From an uncultured Azospirillaceae bacterium (lineage in GTDB: Bacteria > Pseudomonadota > Alphaproteobacteria > Rickettsiales > UBA3002): a DNA stretch of 64,000 bases. The notes below the pieces were generated by a model. It worked only from the letters and a program-made list of their open reading frames with translations, was not told the DNA's origin and made no database searches. This document shows, piece after piece, positions 11,634 through 51,789 of the stretch (positions are counted from its first letter, which is position 1; every line of letters starts with the position of its first letter). The position numbers were made by a program, and so were the translations under genes. The DNA is taken from NCBI GenBank assembly GCA_964352815.1, contig CAYGTO010000003.1, positions 69,015-133,014 on the forward strand. Reading direction: 5' to 3'.

Positions 11634-11769
11634 TGTCATCCCCGCGAAAGCGGGGATCCACAATCATATATGTCAGCAGACATATATGATTTCATAAAAT
11701 GCCTACTTGCATTTTGTGAATGGATTGCCTGCACGCGCTCACTGCTGTTCGCTTGGCGTGGCAATGACA
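11634..11769 (+). repeat. long-form composite palindromic element, copy B
   Basis: TGTCATCCCCGC-GAAA-GCGGGGATCCA. A 12-bp hairpin at 11663-11690 (ATCATATATGTC-agca-GACATATATGAT). A 12-bp hairpin with one G-T pair at 11691-11720. Right module TGGATTGCCTGCACG...GCGTGGCAATGACA at 11721-11769. Confidence 0.85.
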
Positions 11770-13150
11770 TGCTTTGTAGGCCCGCCTCATGCACTTTCGT
11801 ACTCGGCGCAGCATTCATATTCGCCGGCGCTTGCTCGGCCGCCTTCATCATCCGATGCGCCGTAAGCTCCGCATACAGCTCGGCATAGGACGCTTCACCA
11901 AATTCAGGAATCTCGCGCATCGCATCAATAATCTCCGGCACATGTTCCTCGCGATGCCCTTGCGGCAACACATCCAGCGCCGCATCGATATGCGCGAAGA
12001 GTTCGCCGCGATCGATCTTTTTCTCTGAGAAAGGCGCCGCCGCTTTGCAGAGCAGGCCAAGCATAATGATCGCCGTACCGCCTACTTTGAATTTATTGGC
12101 GTTGATAAGTTTCTCATCACTCGCCGCGGTCGCTTCGTACAAATCTTTAAGACCACTATTCATGATAAACCCAGTAGCTGCGAATTCGGAAAGCCCCGAC
12201 ACCGGCATCGCCTGCCTGCGCACTGGGTCGATATATTTTTTCGCCACCTCTTTTCCAAACACATCGCGGATGGCATATTCCACCCAATCAAGCACCGCTG
12301 CCTGATCTGCCTCAGGCTGTTCATCTAATTGACGCTGGGGTTCGGTTTCTTTTCCTTTCCCTGCAAGCGTCACGATTTTTGCAAATTGCGATAATTTGCC
12401 CGCCCGTTGCAGCCAGACATCGCTTGAAGATTTAGACAAAATCATCTTACCGAAAAACTTAAGTAAATCGCTGGCAACGGTAGAATTTTTCTTCAATGAA
12501 TGATCAATCTGATCCAATGTTGATGATCCAATATTTTCTTCGACCTGCCTCTCTTGCGCGCTTATTGCATGGGTCCCTAGCGCCTCATTGATGCGCTGTT
12601 TGGTGAGATACAGCCCCGCTTCATCGCCACGCTTTTGAACACCGTAACCAAGATTGATCATATTTGCGGCAATGCTGGTTCCCGCTGAATACACCTCGAC
12701 ATAAGGGTCTTTTACTTTTACCAAGCTAAATAAATCGGCCTTTGCGGGTTTGTCAAAATTTAGGCCGCGCTTTAGGCCGGAATAAAATACCATCGCCTGA
12801 CCGATATTGCCCAGCACCCCCCGCACGCGCATCAGGTCAACACTTTCCGTCCAGCTTTTCTCCTTCACCACTTCGCGGTAGGCGTCCTTGCCGGCCATTT
12901 GGGTGAGGGAACGCGCGACGGCTTCGGCGGGCTGGGGCGAGCGCAAGACGAGCGTATGGGTGCCATCCTCATGATGGTGTTCGCCGAGGGTGTGATAAGT
13001 CGCGGCGCCTTGCTTAAGCTGATGATGCAAATCCTCCAGCGATTCGCAAGCGCGCGTCGTCAAGGCCAGCACACTGCCCTTGCCCAACATGGTGACATCG
13101 GCGCGTTGCACCAGATCACCCTTATGTTTCGCGTCGAATCGCTTAATCAT
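11636..13150 (-). CDS. hypothetical protein (orphan); last ~44 codons and stop lie inside repeat copy B
   Basis: 504-aa open frame with a GAGGA SD 7 nt upstream of ATG 13150. No recognisable domain. The C-terminal ...MSLPRQANSSERVQAIHSQ...GSPLSRG is the reverse-frame read of the repeat. Confidence 0.55.
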   Translation of the reverse strand: MIKRFDAKHKGDLVQRADVTMLGKGSVLALTTRACESLEDLHHQLKQGAATYHTLGEHHHEDGTHTLVLRSPQPAEAVARSLTQMAGKDAYREVVKEKSWTESVDLMRVRGVLGNIGQAMVFYSGLKRGLNFDKPAKADLFSLVKVKDPYVEVYSAGTSIAANMINLGYGVQKRGDEAGLYLTKQRINEALGTHAISAQERQVEENIGSSTLDQIDHSLKKNSTVASDLLKFFGKMILSKSSSDVWLQRAGKLSQFAKIVTLAGKGKETEPQRQLDEQPEADQAAVLDWVEYAIRDVFGKEVAKKYIDPVRRQAMPVSGLSEFAATGFIMNSGLKDLYEATAASDEKLINANKFKVGGTAIIMLGLLCKAAAPFSEKKIDRGELFAHIDAALDVLPQGHREEHVPEIIDAMREIPEFGEASYAELYAELTAHRMMKAAEQAPANMNAAPSTKVHEAGLQSMSLPRQANSSERVQAIHSQNASRHFMKSYMSADIYDCGSPLSRG

Positions 13151-13161
13151 TCCCTATCCTC

Positions 13162-13239
13162 GTCATCCTGAGAAGCGGAGCGACAAAGGATCTATAGTGC
13201 CTCACGCACAGTAGATCCTTCGCTTCGCTCAGGATGACA
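13162..13239. repeat. short-form palindromic element, copy F
   Basis: The outer 11-bp arms are GTCATCCTGAG / CTCAGGATGAC and the inner 9-bp arms are AAGGATCTA / TAGATCCTT. It lies 11 nt upstream of the orphan gene start. Confidence 0.85.
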
Positions 13240-13371: not shown

Positions 13372-13513
13372 GTCACCCCGGCGAAGGCCGGGGTCTATGA
13401 TCTAACGCAATACCCCGATTTAGATCCTGGATTCCGGCGTTGGCTTCGCCGCCCTGCGGGTCGCCGGAATGACGACACACAATTCCAAGCTGACATTTCG
13501 CACGAGGATGACA
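13372..13513. repeat. nested/adjacent palindromic element remnants, cluster G
   Basis: GTCACCCCGGC-gaag-GCCGGGGTC left end. CTGGATTCCGGCG...CGCCGGAATGAC module ending at 13473. A further solo terminus CGAGGATGACA at 13503-13513, the same end as copy D. Confidence 0.6.
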
Positions 13514-18659: not shown

Positions 18660-18816
18660 TGTCATCCTCGGGGCTTTTGTCAGAAAGACAAAAGATTCCG
18701 GGGATCCAGGATTAAAACGTCAGAAGACGTTTTAATTTCCAAGAATGTCTTCTGACATTCTTGGAGTGGATTGCCTGTACGCGCTCGCTTTCTGCTCGCT
18801 TGACGTGGCAATGACA
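18660..18816 (+). repeat. long-form composite palindromic element, copy C (best preserved)
   Basis: TGTCATCCTCGGGG. Hairpins at 18674-18694 (8 bp), 18711-18736 (11 bp, loop AGAA) and 18739-18764 (11 bp, loop TTCT). CCGGGGATCCAG. Right module at 18767-18816 ending GGCAATGACA. It exactly fills the gap between two convergent stops. Confidence 0.9.
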
Positions 18817-31616: not shown

Positions 31617-34226
31617 TTAATAATTATCCAAGAAGCTGCGCATTTTTCGGCTGCGGCTTGGGTGCTTCAGCTTGCGCAGGGCTTTGGCTTCAATCTGACG
31701 AATCCGCTCACGGGTCACGCTAAACTGCTGCCCCACTTCCTCGAGCGTATGGTCGGTGTTCATGCCAATGCCAAAGCGCATCCGCAGCACCCGCTCTTCG
31801 CGCGGTGTCAGCGTCGCCAGCACGCGGGTGGTGACTTCGCGCAGATTATTATGCACCGCGGAATCGAGCGGCAGAATCGCATTTTTATCTTCGATGAAAT
31901 CGCCAAGATGCGAATCTTCCTCATCACCCACCGGGGTTTCGAGCGAGACCGGCTCTTTCGCGATTTTCATCACCTTGCGCACTTTGTCGACAGGCATCAC
32001 CAAACGTTTCGCCAATTCTTCTGGCGTTGGCTCACGGCCAATTTCATGCAACATCTGACGACCGGTGCGGACAATTTTATTGATTGTTTCGATCATATGG
32101 ACCGGAATCCGGATCGTACGCGCTTGGTCCGCAATCGAACGGGTGATTGCCTGACGAATCCACCAGGTTGCATAGGTTGAGAATTTATAGCCGCGGCGAT
32201 ATTCGAACTTATCGACCGCCTTCATCAGGCCAATATTTCCTTCCTGAATCAGATCCAGGAATTGCAGCCCGCGATTGGTGTATTTCTTCGCGATCGAAAT
32301 CACGAGGCGCAGGTTTGCCTCAATCATCTCCTTCTTCGCACGTGATGCCTCGCGTTCACCCTTACTCACCGCGCCAACGACACGCTTGAATTCTTGCACA
32401 TCAAGGCCCTGTTGCTTCGCGACCGCTTCAATCTTCTCACGAATCTCAATGATTTCATCTTTGTGATTGGCAACAAACTCTTTCCAGCCCTTCTCCTTCA
32501 GCTTAGAAACATCTTTGATCCAGTCCGGTGCGACTTCATTGGTTGCGTAATGCTCAAGGAAATTTTTGCGACTGACTTTGGATTTTTCGGCAAGGCGGAG
32601 GAGCCGCGTCTCAAGTGCGATGAGCTTTTTATTTTCACCGTAGAGACGATCCATCAGCTCGTCGACACGCAGCGCGCTCAAACGCACCGTCAGCATGAGC
32701 TCAGTAAGATCCTTATGGAGAGCATCATACTTCTTTTGATCTACTGTGGCGAAACTACCTTCGCCAAATCCAGCACCCAGACGCTTATCCTGCAAGCGCT
32801 TCATCTTTTTCGCGATTTTAGCAAAATCGTCTAACGTTTCAAGGAACTGAGGCATGAGCGCATTTTCCATCGCCACCAGTGACATTGCCGTGTCATCATA
32901 ATCATCCTCGTCCTCTTCCTCTTCCTCGCCTTCGCCCTCTTCATCTTCCTTATCTTCATCCTCATCGGTTTCATCATCCGAATCTTTTTTGGATTTTTTC
33001 TTGGGCTTATCTTCTTCCTTTGTCTCTTTTTCTTTGGCCTCTTTTTCTTTTGTCTCCTCTTCCTCTAGCGTATCAAATGCCTCTTCAAGCTCGTCTTCTG
33101 TAGGCTCATCTTCATCTTCCGAGAAATCATTCTCAGCATTATAGGTGCCTTCCAGATCGATGATATCACGCAGTAAAATCTCACCCGTCGATAGCCCATC
33201 ACGCCAGGCCAGCATGGTGTCCATCACCACGGGACTTTCGCACAAAGACCGAATAATCATCTCGCGACCTTCTTCAATGCGCTTCGCAATCGCAATCTCA
33301 CCTTCGCGTGAGAGCAGCTCGACATTGCCCATCTCGCGCAAATACATGCGAACAGGGTCATCGGAGCGACCGTAATAATCATCACTCTTTGCTTCCGATT
33401 CCTCTTCTTCCGCTTCTTCGCCCTCAATCGTTACTTCTTTTTCTTCACTATCACCTTCCACAAGATCCGTCACCTTGATGCCATTTTTTTCAAGCGCATC
33501 AATCGTATTATCAATCACTTCGGGGGAGAATTCTTCCGCAGGAAGTACCGCATTCAAATCATCATACGTCACGAAGCCTTGCTTCTTACCCAGCGTCGCA
33601 AGTTTTTTCATGACATCAGGAGAGACACTATTCTTCAGATTTTCTGCCGGAACGGCTTTCTTCGCCGTCTTTTTCGTTTTGCTTTCTTTCGCAGTCGCCT
33701 TCTTCGGCGTTTCTGCTTTCGCTGGCTTTTTGGCTGCTGACTTTGGAGCTGCCTTCGTGGCTTTCGCTTTTACAGGCGCTTTAGATGCTGCCTTTTTCGA
33801 GGTCGATTTCGTTGATTTAACAGTTGCAGTCACAGACTTCTTAGCCTTTACAGGAGTGGTTTTTTTCGATGCGGTGGAAGCTGTCGTCTTCTTCGCGGTT
33901 GTTTTTGTTGTAGTAGTATTACGCGTGGCCGCCTTTTTAGGTGACGCTTTGGCCGCGACTTTTTTCGCAGGCGCTTTCTTAGCAGCGGCCTTTTTGGTTG
34001 GCGTCTTCTTCGCGGGAGATTTCTTCACCGCTGTTTTAGTAGTAACTTTTTTTACCGGTGTTTTTTTCGTAGCAGGCTTCTTGGCTGCTGGCTTTTTCAC
34101 TGTGACTTTCTTTGCTGGCGCTTTCTTAGCAGCAGACTTCTTCACCGCTGCTTTTTTGGCCGGCGCTTTTTTCGCTGCTGTTTTTTTTGCTGTTGATGCT
34201 TTTGCGGTTTTCTTCTTCGCTACCAT
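31617..34226 (-). CDS. rpoD: RNA polymerase primary sigma factor with Lys/Ala/Pro-rich N-terminal extension
   Basis: Regions 1.2-4.2 are canonical ([11 protein letters not shown], ...[55 protein letters not shown], ...[27 protein letters not shown]). aa 1-195 are AKKxP-type repeats in the same frame. Confidence 0.9.
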
Positions 34227-34423
34227 AGACGACCCCTGCCTTACATGAAGGCACTGTTTTATTCTGTCATTTGCCGAGAATAATAATGTATCTCAATTTC
34301 TTAACTGAAAAGAGATATAGAGATTTCTTGATAGACTTCAAGTATTAACTCTAGGCAAGGTGCTGTTTTATTCTGAAACCTTCAAGCAATAGCCCGCGGT
34401 TTTCCACAAGTCGGAGGCACAGA

Positions 34424-45714: not shown

Positions 45715-46098
45715 ATGGTTGAGAACAGTCATGAGCTGGATGAATGCGGCGTTTTTAATGAATCGGGCGACCCAAAGGCCGAGGATGTGACAATCACATT
45801 TCGTGATAACGCCGGAGCAGAACATTCCTTTAGCGTGCACTACACAGTCGTCGATGAGATTCACGAAATCTTTGCTGGCTATGGCGTTCCTAAGATTGAG
45901 GAGGCACGTGATATTTTGGTAGAGCATGCGCCAAGAGACATTCAAGCCGTGATGAATGGGCTTGATATTGATGCACTCAAGAAAAGCACGCCACCTTTAT
46001 GTGGCACCCCTCTATCGCCGTCAGCGTCTAGAGAAGCGCCTGAGCAAAGCCCTCCACCGCTGCCCCGGCCCCGTCCGGATGGCCCCACACGCTCGTGA
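45715..46098 (+). CDS. hypothetical acidic protein
   Basis: ATG 45715 is preceded by AAGGAAAG. The Pro-rich 3' tail overlaps the convergent thiE by ~70 nt, so the true end is doubtful. Confidence 0.35.
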
Positions 46099-46831
46099 TC
46101 GCAGCAATGAAATCCGCCCCGGCCTTGACCATCGGCGTGCAATTTTCCGGCGTCATGCCGCCAATTGCGACGCAGGGAATTTCCGTATAGATGCTCCACC
46201 ATTCCAGAATCTCGGTGGTTGGCGTGCCATATTTCGCAAGCTTTTCGGGTGCTTTCGACTGGGTCGGGTGAAAGGCGCCGAAGGCGACATAATCGGCACC
46301 CGCTGCCGCTGCATCCATCGCCAAATGTTTGCTATCGTGGCAGCTTACGCCAAGAATCGCCTCTTCCCCCAGAAGCTCGCGCATCCGCGCCACTGGCCAT
46401 TCCGCCAGATCTTCCTGCCCGAGATGCACCCCGTCGCAGCCGAGCTGCTTCGCAAGATCCGGCCGGTCATTCATAATAAAGGCGACCTCATACTCCTGAC
46501 AAATCGGCAGGAGCGCTTTCGCCGCCTCGATGATTTGATCGTCCGTCGCTGGCTTCGCAATATCACTCGGGTCCTTCAAGCGGAGTTGGAACGCGCCGAT
46601 GAGGTTTGTGGCTTCCGCACTGTCATCCCGGCGCATGCCGGGATCCGGGGCTTCACCCACTATCTCATTTACAGCCCCAGACCCCGCAACAGGTGCGGGG
46701 TGACAATTTGAGGATTGTTGTGCATCCGCGACACCCTTCCCCGCCCCGAGCGCCGCGCGAAGCTGCGCCGAAAATGCCTCTAATTCGAGCTGCGGCGGTG
46801 AAATTAGGTAGAGATAACAAGGCTCTGTCAT
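46028..46831 (-). CDS. thiE: thiamine-phosphate synthase carrying an in-frame repeat-element insertion
   Basis: LYLISPP...FQLRLKD...FIMNDRPDLAKQLGCDGVHLGQEDL...GVSCH...GADYVAFGAFHPT...IGGM. aa 43-71 (CHPAPVAGSGAVNEIVGEAPDPGMRRDDS) are encoded by element copy H. Confidence 0.85.
   Translation of the reverse strand: MTEPCYLYLISPPQLELEAFSAQLRAALGAGKGVADAQQSSNCHPAPVAGSGAVNEIVGEAPDPGMRRDDSAEATNLIGAFQLRLKDPSDIAKPATDDQIIEAAKALLPICQEYEVAFIMNDRPDLAKQLGCDGVHLGQEDLAEWPVARMRELLGEEAILGVSCHDSKHLAMDAAAAGADYVAFGAFHPTQSKAPEKLAKYGTPTTEILEWWSIYTEIPCVAIGGMTPENCTPMVKAGADFIAAITSVWGHPDGAGAAVEGFAQALL
46621..46705. repeat. palindromic element copy H, inside the thiE reading frame
   Basis: TGTCATCCCGGC-gcat-GCCGGGATCCGGGG...ACCCCGCA-acagg-TGCGGGGTGACA. 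It has the GTCAT/(G)TGAC termini and the GGATCC core of the family, and two perfect hairpins (6 and 8 bp). Confidence 0.8.
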
Positions 46832-46921
46832 TTTTTTAGCAAACCTTCATAAAACTGAAACATAGCGCTGTTATGACATAGCAATCAAACAAGCAGAGGG
46901 CAATGGTTTGTTGTTTTCAGT

Positions 46922-47395
46922 ATGAGCAATATTAACGAATTTTGTGGTGTAGGCATTATCTGGGGATTTGATCCTGGCAATCGCAGAATCTTTGCCAAAG
47001 AGGTGATTGAAGGTTCGGCCGCAGCGCTAGAAGGGCTTCAAAAAGGTGATGTGCTCCTCGCCTATCAAAACGAATCGCGCCATGGCGAAAACGCAGAATG
47101 GCTAGCACCTGAATATGATCCAGATCGTAACATTCTAGAGGATCTTGATGTCATGTATGCTTATAACTCAGATTCTCGGGGTATGGAAGGCTCAAACGTT
47201 AAGATGCGCATTGCCAGAGGTGAGGGATCTGATAGTTTTGACACTGATTGGATGACGCGGGGCTTCGTACATCGCGCCGCGCAGGAACCTCATGCCGATC
47301 ACACCCACTGCATGTTTATTGTAGAAGGTGATGAGGCCGGGCACGGGTTACCGCTATCATTAGTGGCAGCTACGCCGCCTTATAAATCGCGATAA
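46922..47395 (+). CDS. hypothetical PDZ-like domain protein
   Basis: GVGIIWGFD...IFAKEVIEGSAAALEGLQKGDVLLA resembles a PDZ carboxylate-binding loop and helix. The 3' end overlaps the convergent fba by 26 nt. Confidence 0.45.
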   Translation: MSNINEFCGVGIIWGFDPGNRRIFAKEVIEGSAAALEGLQKGDVLLAYQNESRHGENAEWLAPEYDPDRNILEDLDVMYAYNSDSRGMEGSNVKMRIARGEGSDSFDTDWMTRGFVHRAAQEPHADHTHCMFIVEGDEAGHGLPLSLVAATPPYKSR

Positions 47396-48395: not shown

Positions 48396-48473
48396 TCATC
48401 CTGAACAAAGCGAAGGATCTATTCTTCGGGTGGCGCCATAGATCCTTCGTCAGCTTCGCTTCCTCAGGATGAC
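48396..48473. repeat. short-form palindromic element, copy I
   Basis: TTCATCCTGAAC...CGAAGGATCTAT-15 nt-ATAGATCCTTCG...CCTCAGGATGAC. It lies between the gloA stop and the fba start. Confidence 0.85.
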
Positions 48474-51612: not shown

Positions 51613-51633
51613 ACATTCACTCTTTCTGTATAT

Positions 51634-51789
51634 TGTCATTGCCACGTGCCGAGTGCAGAAGCACGAGGTCACAGGCAATCCAGGAAGAAAATGTCAGGAG
51701 ACATTTTCTGACGCTAAAAATCTTCTGATTTTTAGCTATTCTGGATCCCCGGGATCGTTTGCCTACTGACATACACCCCGAGGATGACA
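51634..51789 (-). repeat. long-form composite palindromic element, copy D (inverted relative to A-C)
   Basis: Its reverse complement starts with the same 14 nt as copy C (TGTCATCCTCGGGG). It shares CCGGGGATCCAG, has 10-bp hairpins at 51713-51736 and 51686-51709, and the right module ends CGTGGCAATGACA. It sits in the tkt-gap intercistronic spacer. Confidence 0.9.

Follow-up and report, generated by a model that had tools for sequence, protein, structure and literature searches.

The thiE gene, encoding thiamine-phosphate synthase, contains an extra run of codons in the 64,000-nucleotide (nt) stretch of contig CAYGTO010000003.1 that was analyzed here (the window). These codons very probably derive from a non-autonomous palindromic repeat that inserted itself into the DNA that specifies the loop joining helix alpha1 to strand beta2, and that is tolerated there as an additional peptide of 29 residues. 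The element is 85 nt long, has the inverted ends TGTCA...TGACA, and occupies positions 46621-46705 on the minus strand, as delimited from its sequence, its predicted folds and an alignment of its family. Copies of the same family are found in frame inside other, unrelated genes.

Structure of the element

On the plus strand, positions 46621-46705 read TGTCATCCCGGCGCATGCCGGGATCC GGGGCTTCACCCACTATCTCATTTACAGCCCC AG ACCCCGCAACAGGTGCGGGGTGACA. The element starts with TGTCATCC at 46621 and its terminal GTGACA finishes at 46705; both ends are unique in the window. It is flanked by ...TCAAA(T) on one side and by GCGGAAGCC on the other. Read in the sense of the gene (TGT CAC CCC ...), it makes up codons 43-71 of thiE (C43-S71) and the peptide CHPAPVAGSGAVNEIVGEAPDPGMRRDDS, the last codon taking two nucleotides from the flank. 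A preliminary description of this DNA had reported the two termini and two perfect hairpins within codons 43-71, and they are present in the sequence. That description had also named GGATCC as the core of the element. The motif is there, at 46641-46646, and it marks the inner end of one arm, not the center.

The element consists of two hairpin-bearing arms around a central stem. The arm A hairpin (46625-46644), recovered both by folding and by a module search, has an 8-bp stem ATCCCGGC/GCCGGGAT (46625-46632 / 46637-46644) and the loop GCAT, extending the hairpin CCCGGC-gcat-GCCGGG to 8 bp. Together with the flanks TGTC and CC, and the GGGG that follows, it forms a 30-nt arm module of a type also present at loci L075 and L029. 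The arm B hairpin (46681-46701), which is supported by folding and by covariation, has an 8-bp stem ACCCCGCA/TGCGGGGT and the loop ACAGG. In gene sense this arm reads TGTCACCCCGCACCTGTTGCGGGGTCTGGGG, with one mismatch to TGTCACCCCGCACTTGTTGCGGGGTCTGGGG, the commonest arm in other genomes. Folding also reveals a third stem-loop that the preliminary description, with its two hairpins, did not contain: a central 6-bp stem GGGGCT/AGCCCC (46647-46652 / 46673-46678) that closes a variable 20-nt loop and spans 46647-46678.

These structures are stronger than expected by chance. As DNA the element folds at -24.4 kcal/mol (z = -4.4), and the fold in mRNA sense reaches -50.2 kcal/mol (z = -4.2); in each case none of 200 shuffled sequences folded as well. 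In gene sense the hairpins lack the downstream T run of an intrinsic terminator, and the element is therefore not one. A search of Rfam with positions 46400-46900 gave no match at E <= 1.

The insertion in ThiE

Whether a segment of a protein is an insertion can be judged by comparing it with orthologues that lack it. Relatives of the thiE product were sought among 5.8 billion proteins, and a 24-sequence ThiE alignment compares it with 23 other ThiE sequences. After the product itself, the nearest ThiE in that search is only 59% identical, and typical relatives are 212-237 residues long. In 20 of the 23 other sequences, the conserved segment LYLISPP...AAL..AG[DK] joins [VI]GAFQLRLKD directly, with no residues at the site of the insert. 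The protein from the window instead has 45 residues, G33-L77, between AALGAG(K) and IGAFQLRLKD, which is 42 more than P0003, a relative with three. This alignment, which the preliminary description had proposed as a check, thus sets the insertion at G33-L77 (42-45 residues) and places it, as had been claimed, in frame between AALGAG and FQLRLKD. The site lies between helix alpha1 and strand beta2, and the element supplies residues 43-71 of the total.

The remaining extra residues lie on both sides of the element. Codons 33-42 (GVADAQQSSN; 46706-46735, minus strand) are additional relative to the orthologues in the alignment and, in the AlphaFold model, are predicted to extend helix alpha1. Codons 72-77 (AEATNL; 46601-46618, minus strand) are additional relative to most orthologues and are predicted to form a coil joining the insert to strand beta2. 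It had been noticed before that flanking residues looked extra, and on this point the alignment agrees; the accompanying suggestion of a longer original insertion found no repeat homology behind it. The idea that these codons are remnants of a longer element was dropped, as only chance-level repeat matches were obtained for them.

Apart from the insert, the gene has the appearance of a normal thiE. The open reading frame (ORF; 46028-46831, minus strand) is open from ATG to stop over 804 nt, or 267 codons for amino acids, and its identity rests on the ORF list and on matches to Pfam, the PDB and an AlphaFold model. The product matches the Pfam family TMP-TENI (PF02581) at 158.3 bits (E = 1.7e-46; gathering cutoff 27), with profile positions 26-179 corresponding to residues 78-247; positions 1-25 of the profile drop out of the match, across the insert. 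In the PDB, the ThiE chains of B. subtilis match it at E = 1e-21. The product agrees with all 55 columns listed as invariant in the 24-sequence alignment, which is true by definition, as this ThiE is one of the aligned sequences. The invariant columns include Q82/R84/K86, N121/D122, D141 and T190/S192/K193. By way of the corresponding residues of B. subtilis 2TPS, we take these to be the catalytic or the substrate- and Mg-binding sites (Q-x-R-x-K, N-D, D and T-x-S/T-K). The open frame and the intact downstream ThiE motifs noted earlier are borne out in this way.

Structure modeling, also proposed earlier, gave a consistent picture. An AlphaFold2 model built on the alignment has a mean predicted local distance difference test score (pLDDT) of 89 and a predicted TM-score (pTM) of 0.85. 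Among known structures it is most like B. subtilis ThiE (2tps_A), at a TM-score of 0.81 (normalized by target length, that of 2TPS chain A) and a root-mean-square deviation of 2.3 A. Helix alpha1 is modeled as residues 17-41 (block pLDDT 90), and thus takes in the first ten extra residues. Residues 42-77 form a low-confidence coil (block pLDDT 48-69), after which strand beta2 runs through residues 78-83, and the barrel is kept. In a TIM barrel, the loops that lead from a helix to the next strand sit on the N-terminal face, opposite the catalytic face. The insert is therefore predicted to be a disordered surface loop on the side of the barrel away from catalysis. Intact conserved residues, a confidently modeled barrel and a loop opposite the catalytic face together argue that the enzyme with the insert is probably still active. 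A tryptic peptide predicted from the insert region is GVADAQQSSNCHPAPVAGSGAVNEIVGEAPDPGMR.

An alternative is that the insertion inactivated thiE, leaving a young pseudogene that is still open, with thiamine obtained from elsewhere or from the product of another thiE copy. Strong structure in the mRNA, with three hairpins at -50 kcal/mol, could impede translation, and many relatives of the host are metagenome-assembled genomes (MAGs) labeled Rickettsiales or Micavibrio, groups that include host-dependent or predatory bacteria. Against this stand the intact 804-nt ORF, the invariant columns and the confident model of a ThiE barrel, which make inactivation very unlikely. Further evidence on this point comes from the other genes that contain the repeat (see below).

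The insert could also be an error, if a repeat had been misplaced inside thiE during metagenome assembly. The contig is metagenome-derived, and repeats can mislead assemblers. However, an 85-nt repeat is shorter than typical reads, and the reading frame is exactly preserved. A second assembly, Logan ERR3534985, contains exactly the same insert; over 12.6 kb the two assemblies are 99.976% identical (about 3 differing positions). Equivalent in-frame inserts are found, moreover, in many independently assembled genomes. An assembly artefact is thus scarcely credible.

The repeat family

The earlier proposal that the insert originates from a repeat family can be examined both within the window and across other genomes. 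The window contains 7 arm modules of the form GTCAYCC-N8-22-GGRTCY, where 0.14 would be expected by chance. Two of these are the arms of the thiE element; the remainder are intergenic or lie at gene ends. Nine copies from five other genomes can be aligned with the element over its whole length, and the mean identity per column is 80%. In this alignment the GGGGC/GCCCC positions are conserved and the center is variable. The best match, an intergenic copy (L075 3526-3615), shares this pair of unlike arms; its identity to the thiE element is 80% over the full length and about 97% in each arm. A scan of metagenomes for the same hybrid-arm element gave no matches, although exact matching was probably too strict. 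Taken together, these results uphold the assignment of the insert to a repeat family.

When 185,579 species genomes were scanned with the arm pattern, at least 116 stretches were found; the host genome is not among the matches listed. The loci of that list contain 54 full two-arm elements, 65-119 nt in length with a mode of 87 nt. They are built as TGTCAYCCC-hairpin-GGGRTCYGGGGC, a variable center, and GCCCCRGAYCCC-hairpin-GGGRTGACA. Among the matches listed, they are concentrated in MAGs labeled Rickettsiales or Alphaproteobacteria (SXRF01, JBEBHV01, CAYPEF01, JBDHUC01 and DDZS01), a Pseudomonadota MAG (JBBTBX01) and Micavibrio (M. aeruginosavorus CP195303, and DIVF01). The same matches contain elements of similar build in Propionicimonas, Lysobacter, Rhizobacter and Fibrobacteres.

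Evidence that the arms are maintained as structures, and not only as sequences, can be provided by observing paired changes in their stems. Among 46 distinct 31-nt arms, 94% of cells are paired, compared with 76.7% in shuffles, and 71 cells show a double change, compared with 23.9. Pair 6-24 (Y6-R24), whose pairing is not imposed by the search pattern, is C-G in 23 arms, U-A in 19 and U-G in 4, with no mismatch. Such compensatory change points to a clear structural constraint on the arm hairpin. Judged by copy number, pairing and host range, the family is real, structured and widespread. A literature search by element sequence or peptide returned unrelated primer matches and no description of the family, which is weak evidence that it was previously undescribed.

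Tandem arrays of 80-82-nt two-arm elements occur at L099 3694-4168 (period 131 nt) and L094 2246-2665 (Propionicimonas MAG). Both arrays are contained in stop-free frames of great length in this high-GC actinobacterium, and the two-arm architecture is therefore not confined to alphaproteobacteria.

In-frame copies in other genes

The thiE insertion is not an isolated case. Stop-free frames spanning each full element were listed, and the candidate genes were then checked against Pfam. In acetate kinase (L039), the element forms residues 47-75, inside a domain match that covers residues 4-336. In methionyl-tRNA formyltransferase (Fmt; L064), it forms residues 276-304, inside the C-terminal domain, and in 5-formyltetrahydrofolate cyclo-ligase (L070) it forms residues 49-77, inside the domain match. 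RibD (L095) carries it as residues 176-209, at the start of RibD_C. An AddA/UvrD helicase (L114) contains two copies, one as residues 203-231 inside the UvrD-helicase domain match, and the other as residues 858-888, in another frame and beyond the last domain match. In dephospho-CoA kinase (CoaE; L093 2213-2920, minus strand), the element supplies residues 66-94 and splits the domain match.

Two further cases were provided by searching for the peptide. A profile of the element peptide gave 14 matches among 1.84 billion representative proteins, adding CobU (P0127), where residues 77-106 split the domain match, and a second CoaE (P0132). A profile of the doubled, 58-residue peptide found only six short spurious ORFs among 5.8 billion proteins. 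Of the full elements among the matches listed, 8 of 54 (15%) lie inside verified genes. The preliminary description had likened the thiE insert to the behavior of Rickettsia palindromic elements (RPEs). The likeness in behavior stands, since seven or more other housekeeping genes contain the same family in frame and within Pfam domains; homology to RPE families is not claimed. Judged from these genes, in-frame colonization is a habit of the family.

The two CoaE proteins show how long such an insert can last. They are 66% identical and have the insert at the same position, and about half of the residues of their element peptides differ. This insertion is most likely old, and was inherited in frame across 34% protein divergence. 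Retention over that distance, together with the presence of the element in many essential genes, indicates that the insert is tolerated, which also speaks against the inactivation of thiE considered above.

With one exception, the verified in-frame copies are read in the frame TGT CAY CCC and give the peptide CHPALVAGSG...PRPRNKCGVT. The thiE copy reads CHPAPVAGSG at the corresponding place, one base away from the common arm, and DPGMRRDD in its other arm. Such reuse of one frame, with a conserved peptide in many proteins, would be expected if the insert had been recruited for a function, either as a peptide that serves as an interaction or regulatory loop, or as RNA hairpins that act as an intragenic regulatory or stabilizing structure. 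The long retention of the CoaE insert and the preservation of the hairpins through compensatory changes would also agree with recruitment. However, TGT CAY CCC is the frame that is most often stop-free, and in the common 87-nt form neither strand usually has another open one; in the direction of thiE, TGT CAC CCC is the only one of the three frames that stays open through the element. That the same frame keeps recurring is therefore best attributed to a survival filter, and not to selection on the peptide. The constraint on the arms at the DNA level in turn accounts for how well the peptide is conserved, because intergenic copies are equally conserved. The insert is predicted to be disordered and to lie in an alpha-to-beta loop off the catalytic face, and the RNA lacks both a T run after its hairpins and an Rfam match. 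Recruitment for a function is accordingly very unlikely, and a tolerated insertion is the preferred explanation.

The element also occurs at the beginning of genes. In six pilin-like clusters (P0128, P0129, P0130, P0131, P0133 and P0136; locus L024 4854-4940), it lies directly upstream of the prepilin N-terminal methylation motif. The pilin-like ORFs as called run through the element, although translation could really begin at the ATGACA or GTGACA that ends it (as in ...KCGMTAG|FTLIELS). The element may thus donate gene starts or 5' structure to pilin genes.

Proposed history and mobility

The following history would account for these observations. A hairpin repeat, made of a variable central stem between two inverted arms of about 30 nt each, would have entered the loop-coding DNA of thiE. 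In a gene that is needed, only insertions that were in an open frame and also restored the downstream frame could persist. The outcome would be a tolerated loop, in a gene that survived selection and encodes ThiE plus 29 residues. We infer that the cell translates the peptide, that its ThiE works, and that the insertion is neutral or nearly so.

Several observations weigh against this history. The element as delimited is 85 nt long, which is not a multiple of 3 and would not by itself restore the frame. No target-site duplication is visible in the flanks of the 54 copies. Sixteen further extra residues flank the element without repeat homology: in the window and 119 fetched loci, the DNA of codons 33-42 has only chance-level similarity to repeats, and that of codons 72-77 has no repeat match among those listed. 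Two other ThiE proteins, P0002 (about 63 residues) and P0064 (about 28 residues; L003 9903-10634), have unrelated inserts at the same alpha1-beta2 loop, and that of P0064 is non-palindromic (z = -0.99) and without repeats across its 20-kb locus; the loop can therefore also grow by other routes. A scan of metagenomes for an allele with an empty site gave zero matches, with exact matching that was probably too strict. There being no close relative with an empty site, the insertion event is deduced from distant orthologues. Finally, the copies in the host were counted within the 64-kb window only.

Some of these points bear on details of the process. Across the aligned family, TGTCA is mostly preceded by T, and TGACA is mostly followed by A or G. 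The mobile unit may thus be 87 nt, or exactly 29 codons, and may have split an original AAT codon. From the inserts of different origin, the alpha1-beta2 loop appears to be a permissive site in the ThiE family. A third relative, P0076, has 47 inserted residues at a different loop, including a PLPQGER-type peptide of the sort that translated repeats typically give. Searching all fetched DNA with the inserts of P0002, P0064 and P0076 by tblastn gave noise alone among the matches listed.

As for movement, recognition of the hairpins by a transposase would be the likeliest mechanism. The lack of a target-site duplication means that a route like that of repetitive extragenic palindromic (REP) sequences and RAYT, or like that of IS200/IS605, fits better than that of a classical miniature inverted-repeat transposable element (MITE). 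A tblastn search of the window and the 119 loci (about 1 Mb), with an approximate E. coli RAYT query, found no match, which is a weak negative.

Comparison with known repeats

Palindromic repeats inside protein-coding genes are best known from the RPEs. As summarized in a 2024 review, the families RPE-1 to RPE-10 (Ogata et al. 2000, 2002) are about 150 nt long and are found in frame in protein genes (PMC10969869). The review regards them as the extreme case of a phenomenon that is sporadic with ERIC, BOX, QMITE1 and Anabaena MITEs (PMC10969869). The thiE element resembles RPEs, as that summary presents them, in being a dispersed palindrome that lies in frame in unrelated housekeeping genes and contributes a family-specific peptide at positions compatible with the fold. 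It differs in its length, about 85-87 nt with two hairpin-bearing inverted arms, compared with the summary's figure of about 150 nt (PMC10969869). The hosts are also different, being uncultured alphaproteobacteria and Micavibrio-like genomes and not Rickettsia. Because length and hosts differ, the element is not assigned to the RPEs; the likeness seen is one of behavior.

In build, the family is closer to two other kinds of repeat. REP sequences and the doublets called REPINs are reportedly mobilized by RAYT transposases (Bertels and Rainey 2011; Nunvar et al. 2010), Y1 enzymes like those of IS200/IS605 whose genes the repeats typically flank. Like REPINs, the thiE family has two inverted hairpin units around a spacer, in a doublet of about 70-110 nt with conserved flanks; compensatory change maintains its stems, and its copies show no target-site duplication. 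In contrast, its arms begin with TGTC(A), whereas a REP unit has 5' GTAG. REPs are extragenic by definition, but the thiE family has copies inside genes, in the proportion given above for the matches listed.

MITEs are the second kind. In-frame intragenic copies are known from ERIC, BOX, Coxiella QMITE1, Anabaena MITEs and Correia elements (PMC10969869). The thiE family shares with MITEs a small size (65-119 nt, below 300), terminal inverted repeats (TGTCAYCCC...GGGRTGACA), a high copy number and an occasional translational fusion with host ORFs (PMC10969869). It differs from them in having no visible target-site duplication, and in that its in-frame use is recurrent, with one dominant frame over many genes. 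By this comparison, the element is RPE-like in behavior, and its build is closer to that of a REPIN or a MITE.

Palindromic repeats that colonize genes in frame have largely been viewed as something peculiar to Rickettsia. Here, a shorter and different repeat family behaves like RPEs in at least nine enzyme families, among them ThiE and the seven others named above, from several unrelated assemblies. It is possible, and proposed tentatively, that the TGTCAYCC-hairpin family represents a second case, so far undescribed and outside Rickettsia, of palindromes that code for protein on a large scale. It would be a REPIN-like family across Micavibrio-like and other uncultured alphaproteobacteria, whose single open frame is built repeatedly into housekeeping enzymes and kept through speciation, and whose RTGACA terminus perhaps gives pilin genes their start codons. 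If so, the repeat would regularly supply this clade with new protein loops and gene starts. Several questions can now be tested: whether the inserts are neutral passengers filtered by frame and loop position, what effect a structured 85-nt hairpin cluster in an mRNA has on translation, and which enzyme moves the elements.

The repeat is also a concern for gene annotation. It yields spurious small ORFs (P0121-P0126), and it lengthens genes as called, at their starts and at their ends; examples are the pilin leaders and a 504-residue ORF of the window that ends at 11636.

Other features of the window

Genomic context. As previously described, thiE belongs to a cluster on the minus strand. The neighbors, all on that strand, are tkt, gap, pgk, a glyoxalase-family gene, a DeoC-type aldolase gene, thiE, efp and an inositol monophosphatase gene. 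A 157-residue ORF on the plus strand (46922-47395) lies between thiE and the aldolase gene. It has a sub-threshold match to PDZ_6 (21.8 bits; cutoff 27), and gene calling in the second assembly (L001) also lists it.

Related palindromes. The module search also found an intergenic arm module, GTCACCCCGGCGAAGGCCGGGGTCT (13372-13396, plus strand). Repeat and module searches identified a 77-nt palindrome, GTCATCCTGAG...CTCAGGATGAC, with the termini GTCATCC...GGATGAC. One copy is intergenic at 13162-13239, and a second, also intergenic, lies between the aldolase and glyoxalase genes at 48396-48473. Having the termini of the thiE element and different arms, this palindrome is a sister subfamily.

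Composite repeat. A further arm module from the module search, GTCATCCCCGCGAAAGCGGGGATCC (11635-11659, plus strand), forms the end of a 137-nt composite repeat (11634-11770). This repeat encodes the last 45 or so codons of the 504-residue ORF (11636-13150, minus strand), which has no Pfam match, and its TGTCA terminus also gives the TGA stop of that ORF. Relatives of the composite repeat are found at 114-268, 18660-18816 and 51632-51789. The composite repeat is a second route by which repeats add coding sequence in the window.

Repeats in a long ORF. An ORF of 869 residues (31617-34226, minus strand) contains two kinds of repeat, at 32896-33462 and 33948-34229. One consists of 15-nt periodic repeats, rich in T, C and G on the plus strand and presumably rich in lysine and alanine as read. 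The other repeats a TC-rich 27-nt motif (TCTTCATCTTCC...) and is presumably acidic as read.

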